IMG/VR virus record: IMGVR_UViG_3300036985_004624
Source of the DNA: a virus
Direction: 5' to 3' (one strand)
Length of the DNA stretch: 64,000 bases
Below the pieces are notes generated by a model. It searched no databases and was not told the DNA's origin. It saw only the letters and a list, made by a program, of their open reading frames with translations. This document shows positions 180 through 46,931 of this stretch, piece after piece. The position numbers were made by a program, and so were the translations under genes. Each line of letters opens with the position of its first letter. Positions within the stretch are counted from its first letter, which is position 1.

Positions 180-1208
180 TTAATCTTTCTCTTTTAAAAG
201 ATGTCGATTAGAGATTACTTTGAATGATGCTTCACATTCATTGCACTTGAATACTAGCCCTTCTCTTTCGGGCCCGTTGATGTTTCCCATAACAGACTTA
301 CCTTCAGCCAATGTTAATAGGTCAGCAATAGTTTCCGTAGAGAACGACTTTTTAGAAGTAAATACAGGAACATGCCGCAATCCATACTTCGTAATAAAGG
401 CCTTTCTTTCAGCTGGAGTGAAATATCTGCCATTCTTAACATCATAAATATCAAAGATAAAGAATTCCTGATCTTTAAACATGTACGGATTACCTTGTAT
501 TCCGTTCCCTACTATTTCACCTTGCAATGCTAAATCGGGATTACCATCTTTTAGAATTTTTTCTAAATCATAACGAATTGCTACTTTCCATAGCGAGTTA
601 TTTTCGTCTCTCTTTAAATCCAAATTACGAGAACATACACCGAAATCTTCTTCGAGTAAATAGACAGTCATAGAACTGCCGTTTAGCTTTTCTGATTCTT
701 CCCAAGTGAATCCTGTTTCTTTCCAGAATTCAAATTCCTTAGGTAAATTTTGAATTCTTTCTTGATCAGTCTTTGGAATTCTAGACGGAAAGTTTCCGCG
801 AACAGTCCCTGCCAAGTTTGCAGCGATAGGTGCTTCGTATTTCTGAATATTAAGCGGTAAGGAAACATCTAAACCCTCGAATAACATAGATTCGATGTTA
901 GCACAAGTCGGCTCGAGCGGCATTAATAAACCCTGAGATAGCTGCTTTTTTAGCCGAATTGTGCGTAATTTTTCGCCCTTAACCCCGTTATACTCCCTAG
1001 GCTCTTTGCCTTTAGACAAAAACGGTGCTAATTCGATGGGAATCCAAGAATCCGGTTCTGCATATACTACTAGATCATCAATGGCATATTTTCCGACCGA
1101 ATCAACTACCCACCAACCGTCCACCCGATAGGCACAGATTAAATCTGCTTCGGGTATTGCTTTAATCTCAACAATTTTACGAATTGTTGCCATTTTTCTT
1201 TCTGTCAT
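180..1208 (-). CDS. ATP-dependent RNA ligase, DRB0094/Rnl5-like
   Basis: N-terminal OB-like RKMATIRKI..IPEAD, motif I EKLNGSS, LQGEIVG, EREGLVFK, SFKVISN. Confidence 0.9.
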   Translation of the reverse strand: MTERKMATIRKIVEIKAIPEADLICAYRVDGWWVVDSVGKYAIDDLVVYAEPDSWIPIELAPFLSKGKEPREYNGVKGEKLRTIRLKKQLSQGLLMPLEPTCANIESMLFEGLDVSLPLNIQKYEAPIAANLAGTVRGNFPSRIPKTDQERIQNLPKEFEFWKETGFTWEESEKLNGSSMTVYLLEEDFGVCSRNLDLKRDENNSLWKVAIRYDLEKILKDGNPDLALQGEIVGNGIQGNPYMFKDQEFFIFDIYDVKNGRYFTPAERKAFITKYGLRHVPVFTSKKSFSTETIADLLTLAEGKSVMGNINGPEREGLVFKCNECEASFKVISNRHLLKEKD

Positions 1209-9171: not shown

Positions 9172-9246
9172 TGGCGCCTTGTGTGGGAATCGAACCCACT
9201 GCCAGGAAGTTTAGAAGTTCTTGCTCTACCGTTGAGCTAACAAGGC
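9172..9246 (-). tRNA. amber suppressor tRNA (anticodon CTA)
   Basis: GCCTTGT/ACAAGGC-G-CCA, canonical D and T arms, loop TT-CTA-AA by register, anticodon stem only 3 bp. Confidence 0.75.
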
Positions 9247-9257
9247 GTGTATGTGCC

Positions 9258-9286
9258 ATTTTACTGGCACATTTGATTATTGTCAA
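9258..9286 (-). promoter_or_regulatory. sigma70 promoter for suppressor tRNA, palindrome over -10
   Basis: TTGACA-17-TAAAAT, GTGCCA-GTAAAA-TGGCAC. Confidence 0.7.
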
Positions 9287-9609
9287 TCGGCTGGCCTATA
9301 TAGATCCCATTTCTGAAAGAATGCTCGCTCTTTCGGATTAATTACAGGTCTTGTGCAAATTGCACTATAACCCATATCATTATCGGGCTCGTGAAATATA
9401 TAATATCCAATTCCGGCTCGACTAATCCTTGCAGCAATATCTAATAAATCGTCCTCATCTTTAGCAGATAATAAAATCAAACTCGATGTATGTTTATGCT
9501 CCCATTGATTTAATAATTTACCTGCTTCATGACAAGCATGGCCGAGTTGCACAATCTTTTGAGCGGGTGAAATATCCTCCCGGATAAAAGTATAGATATA
9601 CGAGTTCAC
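9283..9609 (-). CDS. peptidyl-tRNA hydrolase Pth2-like
   Basis: FIREDISPAQKIVQLGHA..FHEPD..SAICTRP. Confidence 0.8.
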   Translation of the reverse strand: MNSYIYTFIREDISPAQKIVQLGHACHEAGKLLNQWEHKHTSSLILLSAKDEDDLLDIAARISRAGIGYYIFHEPDNDMGYSAICTRPVINPKERAFFQKWDLYRPAD

Positions 9610-15870: not shown

Positions 15871-15912
15871 CTATTACCTATATATTTAATATTTATCGCA
15901 ATATAGTCCATT

Positions 15913-15935
15913 AAAATAGGGACCGAAGTCCCTAT
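15913..15935 (-). terminator. intrinsic terminator after tmRNA
   Basis: ATAGGGAC-TTCG-GTCCCTAT-TTT. Confidence 0.85.
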
Positions 15936-15939
15936 GTGA

Positions 15940-16300
15940 TTGGTTTGGTTACAAGGTCGTTCTACCTCGGAGTTGGTGTTTCTTAGGCAACCATTTCCAT
16001 AGCCATATCGCTATCAGCGAAAGCCGACAGGTCAAGAGCTACAAAAGACTCAGTTGTATATGCGTTTGCATTTACAGATTTGCTTGATTAACGGTCATCG
16101 CCTACCGTGTTGCCGTCTCTACTATCTCACGCAATCGATTACCGGAGCAGGCCCATCATAAAGAAATTACAGACTATATTCGTCCGGAATAAACGGGACA
16201 TATTCTTCTGGTAGTTCTAATATATTCATAAATTTCCTTATGGTGGACCTGGCGAGATTCGAACTCGCGTCTTGCTTGCCTTCATTTCAAAGGGATTACA
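15940..16300 (-). ncRNA. ssrA: circularly permuted (two-piece) tmRNA
   Basis: T-arm plus CAGGTCC-ACCA (16241) precedes GGGCCTG 5' end (16154), G3-U70, tag frame 16069..15983 ANAYTTESFVALDLSAFADSDMAMEMVA*. Confidence 0.9.
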
Positions 16301-16306
16301 ACAATT

Positions 16307-17392
16307 CTATCCTACAAAATTATGAAACAACGGAATAAACACATTTCGCTGATTCTTTTCCTTAAATGCATATGTTTTTGTCATCGCAATAATACACCCA
16401 TTCCTATCATTATTACTTACCTTAACTATACGATCAAACCCCACCGATGTATCAATATTAATATTACTAAGAATATTCGATATTAAGAATCCACTTCCTA
16501 CAGGAATATACATATCTTGATCACATAATAATATCCACTCGTTTGAGGCTATCTTACTACCTTCTAAAAGTGCTTCCTCTGCATTTGTTGTATTATATAC
16601 AGGAATAATCTCTGCGTCAACCTCTGATAATCCCGGAGATCTTCCTACATTAATTTCAAATACAGTAGGATCATTTACTGGAACAATTACACTAAATGTA
16701 ATAGGGCGATTAGTTATAGGCTTAGGTATCTTTGTGCCCGTGACACATATCTGATAACTATATAAATTTCTTTCTGCTACAGCTCGGGATATTCCGCGAA
16801 ATTCTGCTGCATCTATCAATAGATTAGCAAACTTTATATCTTTTTCTCCTCCATTACCCACTCCCACATAGCGTGTAGTTTCTATTGTAGGAAACCATCC
16901 CGAATCTAAAAATAATTTAATTGTTGAAGCAATTGACATAAATCTTAAATGTGTAGAATCGAGCAGACCGTATTCGTCATACGATAAATCGCCTAGTAAC
17001 ATACGTTCTATAACACCTATATTTGTCATGATAGGCATACAACACGATATCCGAGCAGCAGGACTGCTAACTTCATATACAAATTTCATAGCATCTATTG
17101 GATTTGTTAAATGTTCGAGCACATCACCCATCACAACTGCATCATAATTACTGCCAGGTAAATCGGATTCTTTAGGATTATTAAGATCCATAAGAACTAC
17201 TTCGTCCATGCGCTTTATTGCTTGAGAAAGTGACTGTGAACTTACATCGACACCTGTCCATTTTGCAACAGGATGTAAACTCTTAAATACTTCGGCTAAT
17301 CGACCGCCTGAACACCCTAACTCTAATACATTAATTGCTTCTGAAGAAACTAATCTCAGTAATTCATTGTTTATATTGTCATATTGTTTCAA
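16307..17392 (-). CDS. class I SAM methyltransferase fused to GT2-like fragment
   Basis: VLELGCSGG, GDVLEHL, GLLDSTHLRF, C-terminal FSVIVPVND..LCDQD. Confidence 0.85.
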   Translation of the reverse strand: MKQYDNINNELLRLVSSEAINVLELGCSGGRLAEVFKSLHPVAKWTGVDVSSQSLSQAIKRMDEVVLMDLNNPKESDLPGSNYDAVVMGDVLEHLTNPIDAMKFVYEVSSPAARISCCMPIMTNIGVIERMLLGDLSYDEYGLLDSTHLRFMSIASTIKLFLDSGWFPTIETTRYVGVGNGGEKDIKFANLLIDAAEFRGISRAVAERNLYSYQICVTGTKIPKPITNRPITFSVIVPVNDPTVFEINVGRSPGLSEVDAEIIPVYNTTNAEEALLEGSKIASNEWILLCDQDMYIPVGSGFLISNILSNINIDTSVGFDRIVKVSNNDRNGCIIAMTKTYAFKEKNQRNVFIPLFHNFVG

Positions 17393-31017: not shown

Positions 31018-31091
31018 TGGTAGGACCGGAGGGAATCAAACCCTCGTAGATCGGTTAAAAGCCGACTATTCTATCATTGAATTACGATCCC
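31018..31091 (-). tRNA. tRNA-Lys(TTT)
   Basis: GTCGG-CTTTTAA-CCGAT, CCA. Confidence 0.92.
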
Positions 31092-36717: not shown

Positions 36718-36768
36718 CAGAATACAGTTTTTTACATTTGGAGTGTATTTATTTGCTGTATGTATTCT
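36718..36768 (-). ncRNA. CAGCAA-scaffold RNA carrying Trp anticodon stem-loop
   Basis: AGAATAC-ATA-CAGCAA..TACA-CTCCAAA-TGTA..GTATTCTG. Confidence 0.75.
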
Positions 36769-37849: not shown

Positions 37850-38059
37850 TTATTTCTTAATATATATCTTCTTTAGATAATCGCGTCCAATTAATCCGGC
37901 TTCAATTTCTCGAAGTGCTGTTACACAGGGTCCATTTGTGCTTGTTACTTTAGACTTATAATTATTCTTTAATTCTTTTGCTCTATGAGCTGCAATCAAT
38001 ACTAAATCGTATCTATTACCAATCATCTCGACTGCTTTTTGCGAAGTAACTCTTGCCAT
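37850..38059 (-). CDS. rpoZ: RNA polymerase omega subunit
   Basis: MARVT..GNRYDLVLIAAHRAKEL..ALREIEAG. Confidence 0.92.
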   Translation of the reverse strand: MARVTSQKAVEMIGNRYDLVLIAAHRAKELKNNYKSKVTSTNGPCVTALREIEAGLIGRDYLKKIYIKK

Positions 38060-38245: not shown

Positions 38246-38323
38246 TGGTATCCACGGTGGGATTCGAACCCACACTGTTCAGTTTTTGAAACTGCTGTCT
38301 CCTACCTATTGCACTACGTGGAC
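38246..38323 (-). tRNA. tRNA-Leu(CAA), short V arm
   Basis: GCAGT-TTCAAAA-ACTGA. Confidence 0.9.
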
Positions 38324-38325
38324 AT

Positions 38326-38424
38326 ATCATACTGAAACATACTGAGGAGAATCCAACTCCTCTCGCTGCCACGCAGGTCTTACGCTATCTCTAGCCCAGA
38401 GTTACTAATATGTTTCAATATGAT
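38326..38424 (-). ncRNA. long-stem RNA enclosing small hairpins including a T-arm-like one
   Basis: ATCATATTGAAACATATT/AGTATGTTTCAGTATGAT stem, GAGGAG-TTGGATT-CTCCTC. Confidence 0.6.
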
Positions 38425-38685
38425 TTCAATATTCCATAGCCGGGATTCTGTTCTATCCTAACATTAATCTTTGCCACAACCCGAACCAATAGGGCAAGTG
38501 TTCCCTAGTTCTGTTTGTGTTGCTTGTTATATCTTGGTAGTGTTAACGACGAAGCAAAGTGGCATTATGAGTCCGACTTTCGCGGGATGATCATACTGTG
38601 GTTCCACTCTGCGGGCCATCTCCTACTCGCACTTGCCACAAGTCCCGAACTTCCTCTGTTGCCAGCGTTAGGTCGAATACTGAAA
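38424..38685 (-). ncRNA. rnpB: RNase P RNA, compact (~260 nt)
   Basis: CR-I GAGGAAGTTCGGGA, CR-V ACAGAATCCCGGCTA forming P4 with bulged U, P1 TTTCAGTATTC/GAATATTGAAA, P2 CCTAACG/TGTTAGG. Confidence 0.85.
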
Positions 38686-38687
38686 AT

Positions 38688-38763
38688 TGGAGTGCGTGAC
38701 AGGAGTCGAACCTGCATAATCAAGGGTTGCAATCTTGTTCCTAGCCGTTCAGATCACACGCAC
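38688..38763 (-). tRNA. tRNA-Cys(GCA)
   Basis: CAAGA-TTGCAAC-CCTTG. Confidence 0.9.
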
Positions 38764-39680: not shown

Positions 39681-39758
39681 TGGATGCAGACGGTTGGATT
39701 CGAACCAACGACCTTTAGGTTATGAGCCTAACGAGCTACCAAGCTGCTCCACGCTGCT
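39681..39758 (-). tRNA. tRNA-Met(CAT), initiator-like D arm
   Basis: TGGAGCAGCTTGGTAGCTCG, TTAGG-CTCATAA-CCTAA, 1:72 mismatch. Confidence 0.85.
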
Positions 39759-42147: not shown

Positions 42148-42210
42148 CAGAGTGCTTTTTCTTTTCAAAGATAATGGTTTTGAAATTTTTAAGTTTGCTG
42201 GAAGCACTCT
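42148..42210 (-). ncRNA. CAGCAA-scaffold RNA
   Basis: AGAGTGC-TTC-CAGCAA..GCACTCTG. Confidence 0.72.
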
Positions 42211-43873: not shown

Positions 43874-44176
43874 TTATTCTATGACTATCAACTTATATGT
43901 TGAATTTTCTGTTTCAAAGATAACCATATTATCTTCTTCTTTAATACTTTTTACGGTGCTTGTTCTTACGATCCTCAAGTCGAGCCCAAAGGTTAACGAC
44001 TTCGATACCATAGAGAATGATTCGCCGATAATTGGGTAATCTACGCATGTACCTTCTACTATGTCGGTCCTAACTCTACCGCCGCCTAGTACTTTTGATA
44101 ATATTATGTTGTGCATTATATTAACATTGCCCGGATTAGGGGCAAGTTCTTTTATTAAACAGAAACGCCGGGCCAA
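43874..44176 (-). CDS. hypothetical protein (start likely ~44116)
   Basis: VRTSTVKSI..FETENSTY. Confidence 0.65.
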   Translation of the reverse strand: MARRFCLIKELAPNPGNVNIMHNIILSKVLGGGRVRTDIVEGTCVDYPIIGESFSMVSKSLTFGLDLRIVRTSTVKSIKEEDNMVIFETENSTYKLIVIE

Positions 44177-45183
44177 ATCATCAAGCCCATGCCTTTAGTT
44201 AACTTACGATTAATTGATGTCGATTGAACATAAATTTCATAGTTGCCATGCATACCTGGAGCAAGTTTGACATTGCCGCTATGTGGGAGGCCGAGCAAGT
44301 CTCTTGCTGCGAGACCGCTATAGACCGCACCTGAAGATTTATCGCGGATTGCAATTTGCTTATACTCTTGAATTTCTTCTGTCTTTTTCAATTCGTAGAA
44401 TGCACAGCCTTTTACAAAAGTAACACCCTGGTCATTTACAAAATCACGAATTTGTGCGCCATCGTTAGCAGCATCTACTTCGTAAACAATTACTTGTTTA
44501 GAAATATCAACTAAGGCAGTTTTTACTTCCTTAAGTGAAACTGTGCTCAAATCTGCATAGAACTTATCAGTACTTGTCATCCCTTTAGAACGAGCAGTAT
44601 AATATCCGTCAAATGCTGAACGAGTAGCTGCCGATGCAACTTCTACACCACGTGTAGTTTGTTCCCATTCTAGAATATTGCCTTCCGGAATACCATATTG
44701 CATTAACCCGCGCTTTTCGCCGCGAGGTACACGGAATACAAATGTCCAGCGATCAGTTGCTTGTAATTCTTTAATCTTCTTACTAATGGTATGTCCTGTC
44801 CACTTAGTTGACGAATTCTCTTGCCCGTCTGTAATTGTCATAACAACGAACGAAACTTCCGGATCGTTTGCATCAGGAACAGATTGTAGTTGCTCGATTA
44901 AATCGCCCACGCTGTCAAACAGTGGTGTCGAATTGCCATCGGCAATATAATCACCGTCTTTAATAGGCTTCAGCATATTGACGTTAGAGTTGATAACTTC
45001 CCGAACAACTCTTGCGGGGCGGCCTGCACCGCACTTAACAACACTAACAATGGTGTCGATGTTATGCGCTGTAGCACCTTCTTTAATAGAAGCGATATTA
45101 TCGTTGTAATCGCGACCTGCTGCAAGGGTAATCATACCCATAGAACCGCTATGATCGCGGCTAATACCAATGTAATTTTTCAT
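44155..45183 (-). CDS. von Willebrand factor A domain protein
   Basis: MIDAS DHSGSM, TPLFDSVG, ITDGQENSS. Confidence 0.88.
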   Translation of the reverse strand: MKNYIGISRDHSGSMGMITLAAGRDYNDNIASIKEGATAHNIDTIVSVVKCGAGRPARVVREVINSNVNMLKPIKDGDYIADGNSTPLFDSVGDLIEQLQSVPDANDPEVSFVVMTITDGQENSSTKWTGHTISKKIKELQATDRWTFVFRVPRGEKRGLMQYGIPEGNILEWEQTTRGVEVASAATRSAFDGYYTARSKGMTSTDKFYADLSTVSLKEVKTALVDISKQVIVYEVDAANDGAQIRDFVNDQGVTFVKGCAFYELKKTEEIQEYKQIAIRDKSSGAVYSGLAARDLLGLPHSGNVKLAPGMHGNYEIYVQSTSINRKLTKGMGLMIWPGVSV

Positions 45184-46505: not shown

Positions 46506-46562
46506 TACGCTGTTGTTCTTATGTATTTATCATAGTTCGACGCTCTTGCGCGAACTGCTGTG

Positions 46563-46635
46563 TCTCCCTATCCGGATTCGAACCGAAACCCTACCGCCCC
46601 AAACGGCAAATGCAACCAGATAACACTTTAGAGAG
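46563..46635 (-). tRNA. tRNA-Pro(TGG), CCA not encoded
   Basis: TGCCG-TTTGGGG-CGGTA. Confidence 0.8.
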
Positions 46636-46875: not shown

Positions 46876-46931
46876 CAGACTACACATTTGGTTTCATTTA
46901 CAGTGAATTTTTAAATTGCTGTAGGTAGTCT
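46876..46931 (-). ncRNA. CAGCAA-scaffold RNA carrying Tyr anticodon stem-loop
   Basis: AGACTAC-CTA-CAGCAA..TTCA-CTGTAAA-TGAA..GTAGTCTG. Confidence 0.78.

Follow-up and report, generated by a model that had tools for sequence, protein, structure and literature searches.

RNase P RNA is the ribozyme that trims new tRNAs and, to our knowledge, has been regarded as a universal cellular housekeeping ribozyme. Its specificity (S) domain reads the elbow formed by the T-loop and D-loop of the tRNA, metal ions bind near the bulged U of helix P4, and in class A RNAs the GGU of loop L15 binds the tRNA 3'-CCA. The bacterial P4 sequence, AAG[U]CCGGG paired with CCCGGCUU, is near-universal. An engineered E. 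coli catalytic (C) domain without the S-domain cleaves whether or not the C5 protein is present; its activity needs a P6-like pairing and can dispense with P18, and such C-domain-only constructs cleave with reduced efficiency (PMC5839562). In nature, almost the whole specificity domain has been lost from the type T RNase P RNAs of the Thermoproteaceae (e.g., Pyrobaculum), which are ~200 nt long and needed a dedicated covariance model because general models miss them (PMC3579882). In gut phages, HDV-like theta ribozymes adjoin tRNA genes and have been implicated in tRNA maturation (PMC10879173). Our literature search found no published report of an RNase P RNA in a phage or virus.

Here we analyze a 64,000-nt stretch of viral DNA (IMG/VR record IMGVR_UViG_3300036985_004624; hereafter, the window) in which a compact RNase P RNA of ~260 nt had been predicted, from the letters alone, inside an array of tRNA genes. 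The RNA lies on the minus strand at exactly the coordinates first proposed (Table 1), and its length of 262 nt, with boundaries set by a search for the inner P1 helix, is indeed shorter than the about 350-400 nt of typical type A RNAs. Judged by sequence and covariation, the phage encodes here a strongly reduced homologue of class A RNase P RNA, with the catalytic domain kept complete. The best explanation as a whole, to which we give a probability of roughly 0.7, is that this reduced class A homologue is co-transcribed with neighboring tRNA genes and removes 5' leaders in trans, most likely with the RnpA protein of the host.

All long open reading frames (ORFs) of the window are on the minus strand, and its G+C content is ~36-40%. 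The window carries phage hallmark genes, and its phage-like protein matches include a T4-type RNA ligase, virion structural protein families, a nucleoside deoxyribosyltransferase, a PstS-like protein and Pth2. In GenBank, one window protein has its best relative in Caulobacter phage Cr30 (57% identity), and no close DNA-level relative of the window was found among GenBank phages. The stretch is contained in DNA sequencing runs on metagenomes of lake water, freshwater and sediment. Together, the phage-like proteins, the lack of a close GenBank phage and the freshwater-type metagenomes identify the source, by all appearances, as a large uncultured freshwater phage. ARAGORN finds 31 tRNA genes and a two-piece tmRNA in the window, and 30 of these 31 tRNAs encode their CCA. 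Rfam adds two further tRNAs that ARAGORN missed (31021-31091 and 39685-39757, minus strand; 62 and 55 bits), the second of which sits in the highest-depth bin of all four RNA libraries compared. A tRNA-Pro at 46562-46635, called by ARAGORN only and without CCA, may not be a real tRNA.

Several other features of the window deserve mention in their own right. The tag peptide of the permuted tmRNA is ANAYTTESFVALDLSAFADSDMAMEMVA. An amber-suppressor tRNA (anticodon CUA, 57 bits with the Rfam tRNA model) adjoins the Pth2-type peptidyl-tRNA hydrolase gene (9283-9609; region 9172-9609, minus strand). A 69-aa ORF within the tRNA array (37850-38059, minus strand) matches the RNA polymerase omega/Rpb6 family (PF01192, E 4e-13), an unusual phage gene, and a 342-aa gene at 44155-45183 has vWA-type relatives. 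Four tRNA spacers on the minus strand (47026-47080, 46876-46930, 42148-42209 and 36718-36767) give sub-threshold Dicty_Class_I_RNA matches of 27-38 bits, which points to a putative small structured RNA repeated in the array.

Table 1. Features of the mini RNase P RNA, in the order of the RNA from 5' to 3', and of the surrounding window (positions are those of the window).
Feature	Coordinates	Strand	Sequence, pairing or remark
Whole mini RNase P RNA gene	38424-38685	minus	262 nt, P1 5' strand to P1 3' strand
P1 5' strand	38675-38685	minus	UUUCAGUAUUC; pairs with GAAUAUUGAAA at 38424-38434; 11 bp
P2 5' strand	38667-38672	minus	CCUAAC; pairs with GUUAGG at 38457-38462; 6 bp
P3	38656-38665	minus	CUG-GCAA-CAG; 3-bp stem and GCAA (GNRA) tetraloop
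CR-I	38642-38656	minus	GAGGAAGUUCGGGAC; J3/4 GAGGA, P4 5' strand AGU[U]CGGGA, then C
P5 5' strand	38638-38642	minus	CUUGU; pairs with ACAAG at 38523-38527
P6 pseudoknot 5' strand	38630-38637	minus	GGCAAGUG; pairs with CACUUGCC at 38493-38500 in the P16/17 loop; 8 bp
Hypervariable hairpin replacing the specificity domain	38533-38629	minus	conserved base GUAG/CUAC flanked by GGAG and CGUUAA
CR-IV-like J5/15 and P15 5' strand	38511-38523	minus	GCAA-CAC-AAACAG
P16/17 stem	38483-38511	minus	GAACUAG/UUGGUUC; P6 3' strand in its loop
L15 3' side and P15 3' strand	38475-38482	minus	GGGUU (GGU motif), then GUG
J18/2-like segment, P2 3' strand, J2/4	38446-38470	minus	AGAUUAAU, P2 3' strand, AUAGAACAGAA; no P18 between
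CR-V/P4 3' strand	38438-38445	minus	UCCCGGCU; CR-V block ACAGAAUCCCGGCUAU
Upstream tRNA-Cys(GCA)	38688-38763	minus	ARAGORN and Rfam; encoded CCA ends 2 nt before P1
Downstream tRNA-Leu(CAA)	38246-38323	minus	100 nt beyond P1
Two-piece (permuted) tmRNA	15892-16353	minus	Rfam tmRNA_permuted 106.6 bits, beta_tmRNA 104 bits
T4-type RNA ligase	180-1208		window gene

Relatives of the RNA were sought in loci picked by way of the neighboring protein and by pattern scans, three in all, of viral contigs, and the homologues obtained differ widely in their divergence. A single relative (L006) came from a first nhmmer/blastn pass over the flank-derived loci, the remainder from the pattern scans. A loose CR-I pattern match in L014 and a CR-V string in L022 proved to be unrelated sequence and were dropped. 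A covariance model (R1) built from 13 short members, with nested helices only and P6 left out, picks out 24 full-length copies, which score 125-235 bits and are carried on viral contigs; the 586 kb searched hold no other credible match. The window copy matches R1 with 219.8 bits over model positions 1-208 (cmsearch). The carriers include terminal-repeat IMG/VR records rated 100% complete. No match to the window copy, L055 or L053 was found by blastn in 50,697 GenBank phage records. A signature scan of one genome per prokaryote species (596 Gb) gave 37 matches in bacterial genomes and metagenome-assembled genomes (MAGs), which we reject as family members and attribute to chance, because R1 finds no member among them and their number is about that expected by chance in 596 Gb.

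Of the 24 copies, 21 are distinct and were aligned; they span 42% to 59% G+C, and the smallest cores measure 196-205 nt (L053, in a 196-nt form, L046 and L043). In this 21-row alignment 95.8% of the cells pair, as against 27-46% after a shift of the 3' partner by 1-3 columns, and compensatory double changes are found at 38 of the 55 pairs, in 10 helices, where shuffling gives a mean of 17.6 and none of 500 shuffles reaches 38. An unfitted MAFFT alignment has 95.5% of its cells paired and 36 pairs with double changes. As P6 is not in R1, the alignment could not have been bent towards this helix. The conservation of the predicted helices in the family is far beyond chance. A protein-coding reading of the region is ruled out, as either strand holds only short ORFs, indels are non-triplet and whole hairpins are swapped within the family.

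The original prediction had named the CR-I and CR-V signatures pairing as P4 with a bulged U, as well as P1, P2 and a minimal P3 (CTG-GCAA-CAG). All of these are present: P1 shows double compensatory changes across the family at 10 of its 11 pairs, P2 covaries at 6 of 6 with 100% of cells paired, and P3 covaries at 3 of 3. P4 joins AGU[U]CGGGA to UCCCGGCU in 8 bp (3 bp, the bulged U at 38648, then 5 bp), and its bulged U is invariant. To this list we add P5, the P6 pseudoknot, P15, P16/17, the L15 GGU loop and the J18/2-like segment AGAUUAAUG, which is present in the window copy. P5 covaries at 4 of 5 pairs (e.g., CACAC/GUGUG in L036 and CAAGC/GCUUG in L050), P6 at 6 of 8 and P16/17 at 6 of 7, and P15 at 1 of 3 (the middle pair, CGC/GCG in L054). 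The P3 loop is of the GNRA type in the AT-rich clade, to which the window belongs, and in L054, but not in L034 or L001. CR-I is unchanged in all 13 aligned members save for a single U-to-C substitution. In the 21-copy set P4 does not vary apart from a U-G to C-G change in L034, and in the more distant L055 two of its pairs are swapped (CAGGG/CCCUG for CGGGA/UCCCG) with the bulged U kept. The single strands that are invariant across the family, namely J3/4 GAGGA, the bulged U, J5/15 AAACAG, L15 GGGU, J18/2 AGAUxAAU and J2/4 ACAGAA, we take to be the catalytic core and the substrate contacts.

The one part of the RNA that varies freely is the hairpin standing in place of the S-domain. Its base, GUAGGAG...CGUUAAxCUAC, is conserved, with 2 of 4 pairs covarying, and its interior is as short as GCGAAAGC in L043, L046 and L053 and holds inserts of >150 nt in L035, L037, L040 and L050. 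A P7-like pairing at the hairpin base (CGNG with CNNG) was inconsistent by eye and was kept out of the model. In three relatives (L035:341-682(-), L040:336-683(+) and L050:5483-5827(+)) the hairpin holds a nested tRNA-like module whose acceptor stem reads GGGGCAU...AUGUUCC, whose T arm reads GGGUUCGAAUCCC and which has ACCA; ~90 nt in it stand in place of the D and anticodon arms. The module gives a weak Rfam tmRNA match (16.5 bits) and no ARAGORN call. The locus L039:13436-13572(-) has only the 3' half of a family member, with protein-coding-like DNA upstream of the 3' strand of the hairpin, which suggests a large insertion in the variable hairpin.

A comparison with RNase P models by Infernal, proposed with the original prediction as its check, finds nothing in the window copy: there is no RNase P match in Rfam at gathering, at E<=10 over 38300-38720 (421 nt) or at E<=1 over the whole window. 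The gathering threshold of the bacterial class A model RF00010 is 100 bits, and the window copy and its relatives all fall short of it. Both this silence and the sub-gathering scores of the relatives weigh against the class A reading. We nevertheless do not take the miss as a refutation, because relatives bridge the family to RF00010: L055 matches it end to end at 72.7 bits (E 2.5e-22) and L001 end to end at 52 bits (E 3.7e-15), both below gathering, and L054 matches RF00373, also below gathering, at 51.8 bits (E 8.4e-12) and at exactly the boundaries that had been set manually. L055, which is outside the building set of R1, also matches R1 (E 4.5e-12). As the window copy has no Rfam match of its own, its homology rests on these intermediate sequences together with the covariation, and the window copy is apparently linked to class A RNase P in a chain, by way of the R1 family and then L055.

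The alignments bear this chain out block by block. For L001 and L055, Rfam places GAGGAA..., GCAA-P15-AAAxAG, CGGGU-P15', AGAUxAAUG and ACAGAA-CCGGCU on the corresponding blocks of its model, and CR-I in these two relatives aligns to the class A consensus GAGGAAAGUCCGGgC. The nearly invariant J5/15 and P15 5' strand align to Rfam GCAAggccAAAUAGG, GGGUUG-GGC, invariant in all members, aligns to Rfam CGGGUaggccGC, and the stretch from J18/2 through P2 to J2/4 aligns to Rfam AGAugAAUG...ACAGAA. CR-I, CR-IV, CR-V, J18/2 and J2/4 are all present, and in L001 and L055 they align with the Rfam consensus column by column. P1, P2 and P3 enclose the core in the canonical class A order, and the class-A-specific arm of P15, L15 (GGU) and P16/17 is present, as is the P6 pseudoknot to the strand after P5. 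The class A C-domain topology, the covariation and the scores of L055 and L001 uphold the proposal of a compact phage RNase P RNA within a tRNA array.

What the family lacks, relative to class A, is the specificity domain (P7-P14, CR-II, CR-III), for which the single hairpin with its replaceable interior is substituted, and P18: only 12 nt (GCAAAGAUUAAU) lie between the 3' strands of P15 and P2. L055 alone keeps P7-P9 and a shortened S-domain, with a P18 insert of 0 nt; L001 has its S-domain deleted in the Rfam alignment; and the AT-rich clade of the window has neither S-domain nor P18. The order L055, L001, AT-rich clade reads as a putative reduction series. Rfam at E<=1 gave no signal, across the window, of a second RNase P RNA or of an S-domain supplied in trans.

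The RNA is set tightly into its array. In the window P1 begins 2 nt after the encoded CCA of tRNA-Cys, and the two would be co-transcribed, because this gap has no room for a separate promoter. Relatives' copies mostly have a tRNA at a distance of 1-11 nt on one side or both, this distance rising to as much as ~200 nt in L036 and L054; the copies examined lie in tRNA arrays, with the exception of L001, whose 12.6-kb locus has no tRNA. On the other side of the window copy, the 100-nt spacer that separates it from tRNA-Leu(CAA) (38324-38423, minus strand) has a cloverleaf-like fold (MFE -36.6 kcal/mol) with a 17-bp closing stem and three hairpins and without CCA, the last hairpin (GGAG-UUGGAUU-CUCC) resembling a T arm. 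The sequence of the closing stem is found again in L002, which has no RNase P RNA, and around a different interior in L006.

L002 is informative in a further respect. Its neighboring deoxyribosyltransferase is 98% identical to that of the window, yet only a 69-nt spacer lies between its tRNA-Cys and tRNA-Leu(CAA) (L002:6744-6968), and the RNA is absent from the rest of this 39.5-kb contig (rated 12% complete). The complete 362-kb genome of a relative (G007) has none either. Because L002 lacks the RNA at the exact site and G007 has none, the gene appears to be dispensable or replaceable for the phage, a point against the ribozyme reading; gain and loss also appear to affect it as one clean cassette.

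Parts of the relatives' copies are covered by contigs that three studies' RNA libraries yielded on assembly, but we do not count them as evidence of expression, because the contigs do not reveal ends or strand and the same libraries cover a neighboring ORF too; nor do we read anything into the portions left uncovered. One such contig (X19 record 23, from an RNA library, at low depth, on window 38437-38675) holds a relative's RNA in circularly permuted form, with the P1 3' strand, UGA and then the P1 5' strand, as would be expected of a circular RNA or of a tandem gene copy. We note beside it the T4-type RNA ligase gene of the window.

We propose that the mini RNase P RNA is, most likely, an active trans-acting ribozyme that processes the 5' ends of phage tRNAs. 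It would be transcribed within the polycistronic tRNA array, released by the same cuts that free the neighboring tRNAs, and would then act in trans to remove the 5' leaders of the phage's 30-plus CCA-ending pre-tRNAs. Substrates would be read through the acceptor stem, the 3'-CCA (by the L15 GGU) and the leader junction (by J5/15 and J18/2), and not through the T-loop elbow; that nearly all window tRNAs encode the CCA ligand of the GGU supports this manner of reading. Host RnpA would most likely be borrowed as the protein partner. A search for PF00825 that was positive in 10 of 14 control bacteria revealed no RnpA in five carrier records, of which one, at 364 kb, is 100% complete, and there was no match among 20 small ORFs of the window. 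The benefit to the phage may lie in sufficient capacity for tRNA processing while infection proceeds. The phage RNA keeps, and in P6 lengthens, what the truncated E. coli RNA needed and drops what was dispensable there, which by analogy would make it a feasible ribozyme design. The original prediction had assigned it atypical tRNAs and tRNA mimics as substrates; this part falls away as unnecessary, because most window tRNAs are ordinary, CCA-encoding ones.

A related but unlikely alternative is that the RNA does act as an RNase P-type ribozyme but mainly on substrates other than ordinary tRNAs, for example, the two-piece tmRNA precursor, tRNA-like or Y-RNA-like spacer RNAs, or the passengers nested in its own hairpin. 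The loss of the S-domain, and with it of T-loop checking, would relax substrate specificity; the window is rich in structured RNAs (the tmRNA, the small-RNA matches in the spacers and the cloverleaf-like element); and the variable hairpin of some relatives itself holds a tRNA-like module with acceptor stem, T arm and CCA. Ordinary tRNA genes, however, are what the family is associated with most strongly and most generally, and the L15 GGU and near-universal encoded CCA fit canonical pre-tRNA recognition. The two ideas about substrates are not mutually exclusive.

Quite unlikely, in our estimate, is that the RNA is a non-catalytic decoy or regulator, an RNase P fold that soaks up host RnpA and/or the 3'-CCA ends of pre-tRNAs, so that host tRNA maturation is throttled or phage precursors are protected with no cleavage by the RNA itself. 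In favor of a decoy, four base pairs of P4 depart from the bacterial consensus (AGU[U]CGGGA/UCCCGGCU vs AAG[U]CCGGG/CCCGGCUU), one of them a U-G wobble adjoining the bulged U; these predicted departures also weigh against the ribozyme reading. All four are compensated, however, and the geometry of 3 bp, bulged U and 5 bp is kept. The S-domain and P18 are lost, as a decoy would allow, but C-domain-only constructs are active (PMC5839562). As the searches of the carrier records and of the window's small ORFs revealed no phage RnpA, any protein partner would have to come from the host. Against a decoy stands the invariance of the bulged U, J3/4 GAGGA, J2/4 ACAGAA and J5/15 AAACAG while the helices around them are fully rewritten, since these positions presumably matter for chemistry and not for protein binding.

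That the RNA is a decaying relic (a captured fragment of a host rnpB) or a selfish mobile cassette of no service to the phage is very improbable: the presence/absence polymorphism between near-identical phages (the window and L002) and the lack of the RNA in a complete related genome fit such a history, but 95.8% pairing, 38 compensatory pairs and an invariant catalytic core over 21 distinct copies from 42% to 59% G+C do not fit decay, no nuclease gene flanks the window copy as for a mobile cassette, and mobility is compatible with function. All three alternatives explain the invariance of the catalytic positions less well than an active tRNA-processing ribozyme does.

What appears to be new is that a virus encodes an RNase P RNA of the bacterial type that has neither S-domain nor P18 and escapes current family models. 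Beyond the window, the odds in our view lean towards a wider picture, in which phages of several lineages carry a working, natural C-domain-only RNase P ribozyme of ~200-260 nt that matures their tRNA arrays without relying on the host RNase P RNA and possibly aided by host RnpA or by no protein at all, the replaceable hairpin docking passenger RNAs and the cassette possibly being gained, lost and even circularized. If true, no earlier trans-acting ribozyme of the RNase P class would be known from a virus, and no natural bacterial-type RNase P would be smaller. A conserved viral RNase P RNA would mean that phages import, beyond tRNAs, part of tRNA maturation as well. The family would be a natural experiment on the minimal bacterial-type RNase P, with no S-domain or P18, a longer P6 and a rewritten P4; its reduction matches what truncation studies found sufficient, and it may offer compact scaffolds for structural and engineering work. 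Because Rfam and standard annotation miss these genes, they are currently labeled as intergenic spacers in phage tRNA arrays; the dedicated model R1 recovers them at >120 bits.

Of the described systems, class A RNase P RNA, as exemplified by E. coli M1 RNA (rnpB, RF00010), shares with the phage RNA, in the same order, P1, P2, P3, J3/4, P4 with its bulged U, P5, P6, J5/15, P15, L15 GGU, P16/17, J18/2 and J2/4, and the sequence blocks GAGGAA..., GCAA..AAAxAG, CGGGU, AGAUxAAUG and ACAGAA..CCGGCU. The phage RNA differs in its size (262 nt, or 196-205 nt in the smallest relatives, as against about 350-400 nt), in having one variable hairpin for the S-domain and no P18, in a P3 of only 3 bp with a GNRA loop, in a P6 lengthened to 8 bp, in the four altered base pairs of P4, and in being encoded by a virus inside a tRNA operon. 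The Eco CP RPR (Mao et al., 2018; PMC5839562) is likewise a class A C-domain without S-domain that retains a P6-like pairing and drops P18; whereas it was made by truncation in the laboratory and works with reduced efficiency, the phage RNA is encoded by a natural gene that is conserved and covaries, its P6 is strengthened to 8 bp, and its P3 and P4 are remodeled.

Type T RNase P RNA and the phage RNA are alike in the natural loss of the S-domain and in a core of ~200 nt (196-205 nt in L053, L046 and L043). Type T, however, is archaeal, chromosomal and served by archaeal proteins, whereas the phage RNA would be of bacterial class A descent, as indicated by L15 GGU, P6, P16/17 and J18/2; no RNase P clan model of Rfam matches the window, and the bridging members match the bacterial class A model best. 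Given this descent, the reduction would be independent of that in type T, and the likeness, as far as the alignments tell, is one of analogous reduction and not of membership. The theta ribozymes share with the phage RNA a place beside phage tRNA genes but have an unrelated fold and are small RNAs that cleave themselves, in cis (PMC10879173), whereas the phage RNA described here is a predicted homologue of a ribozyme that acts in trans.
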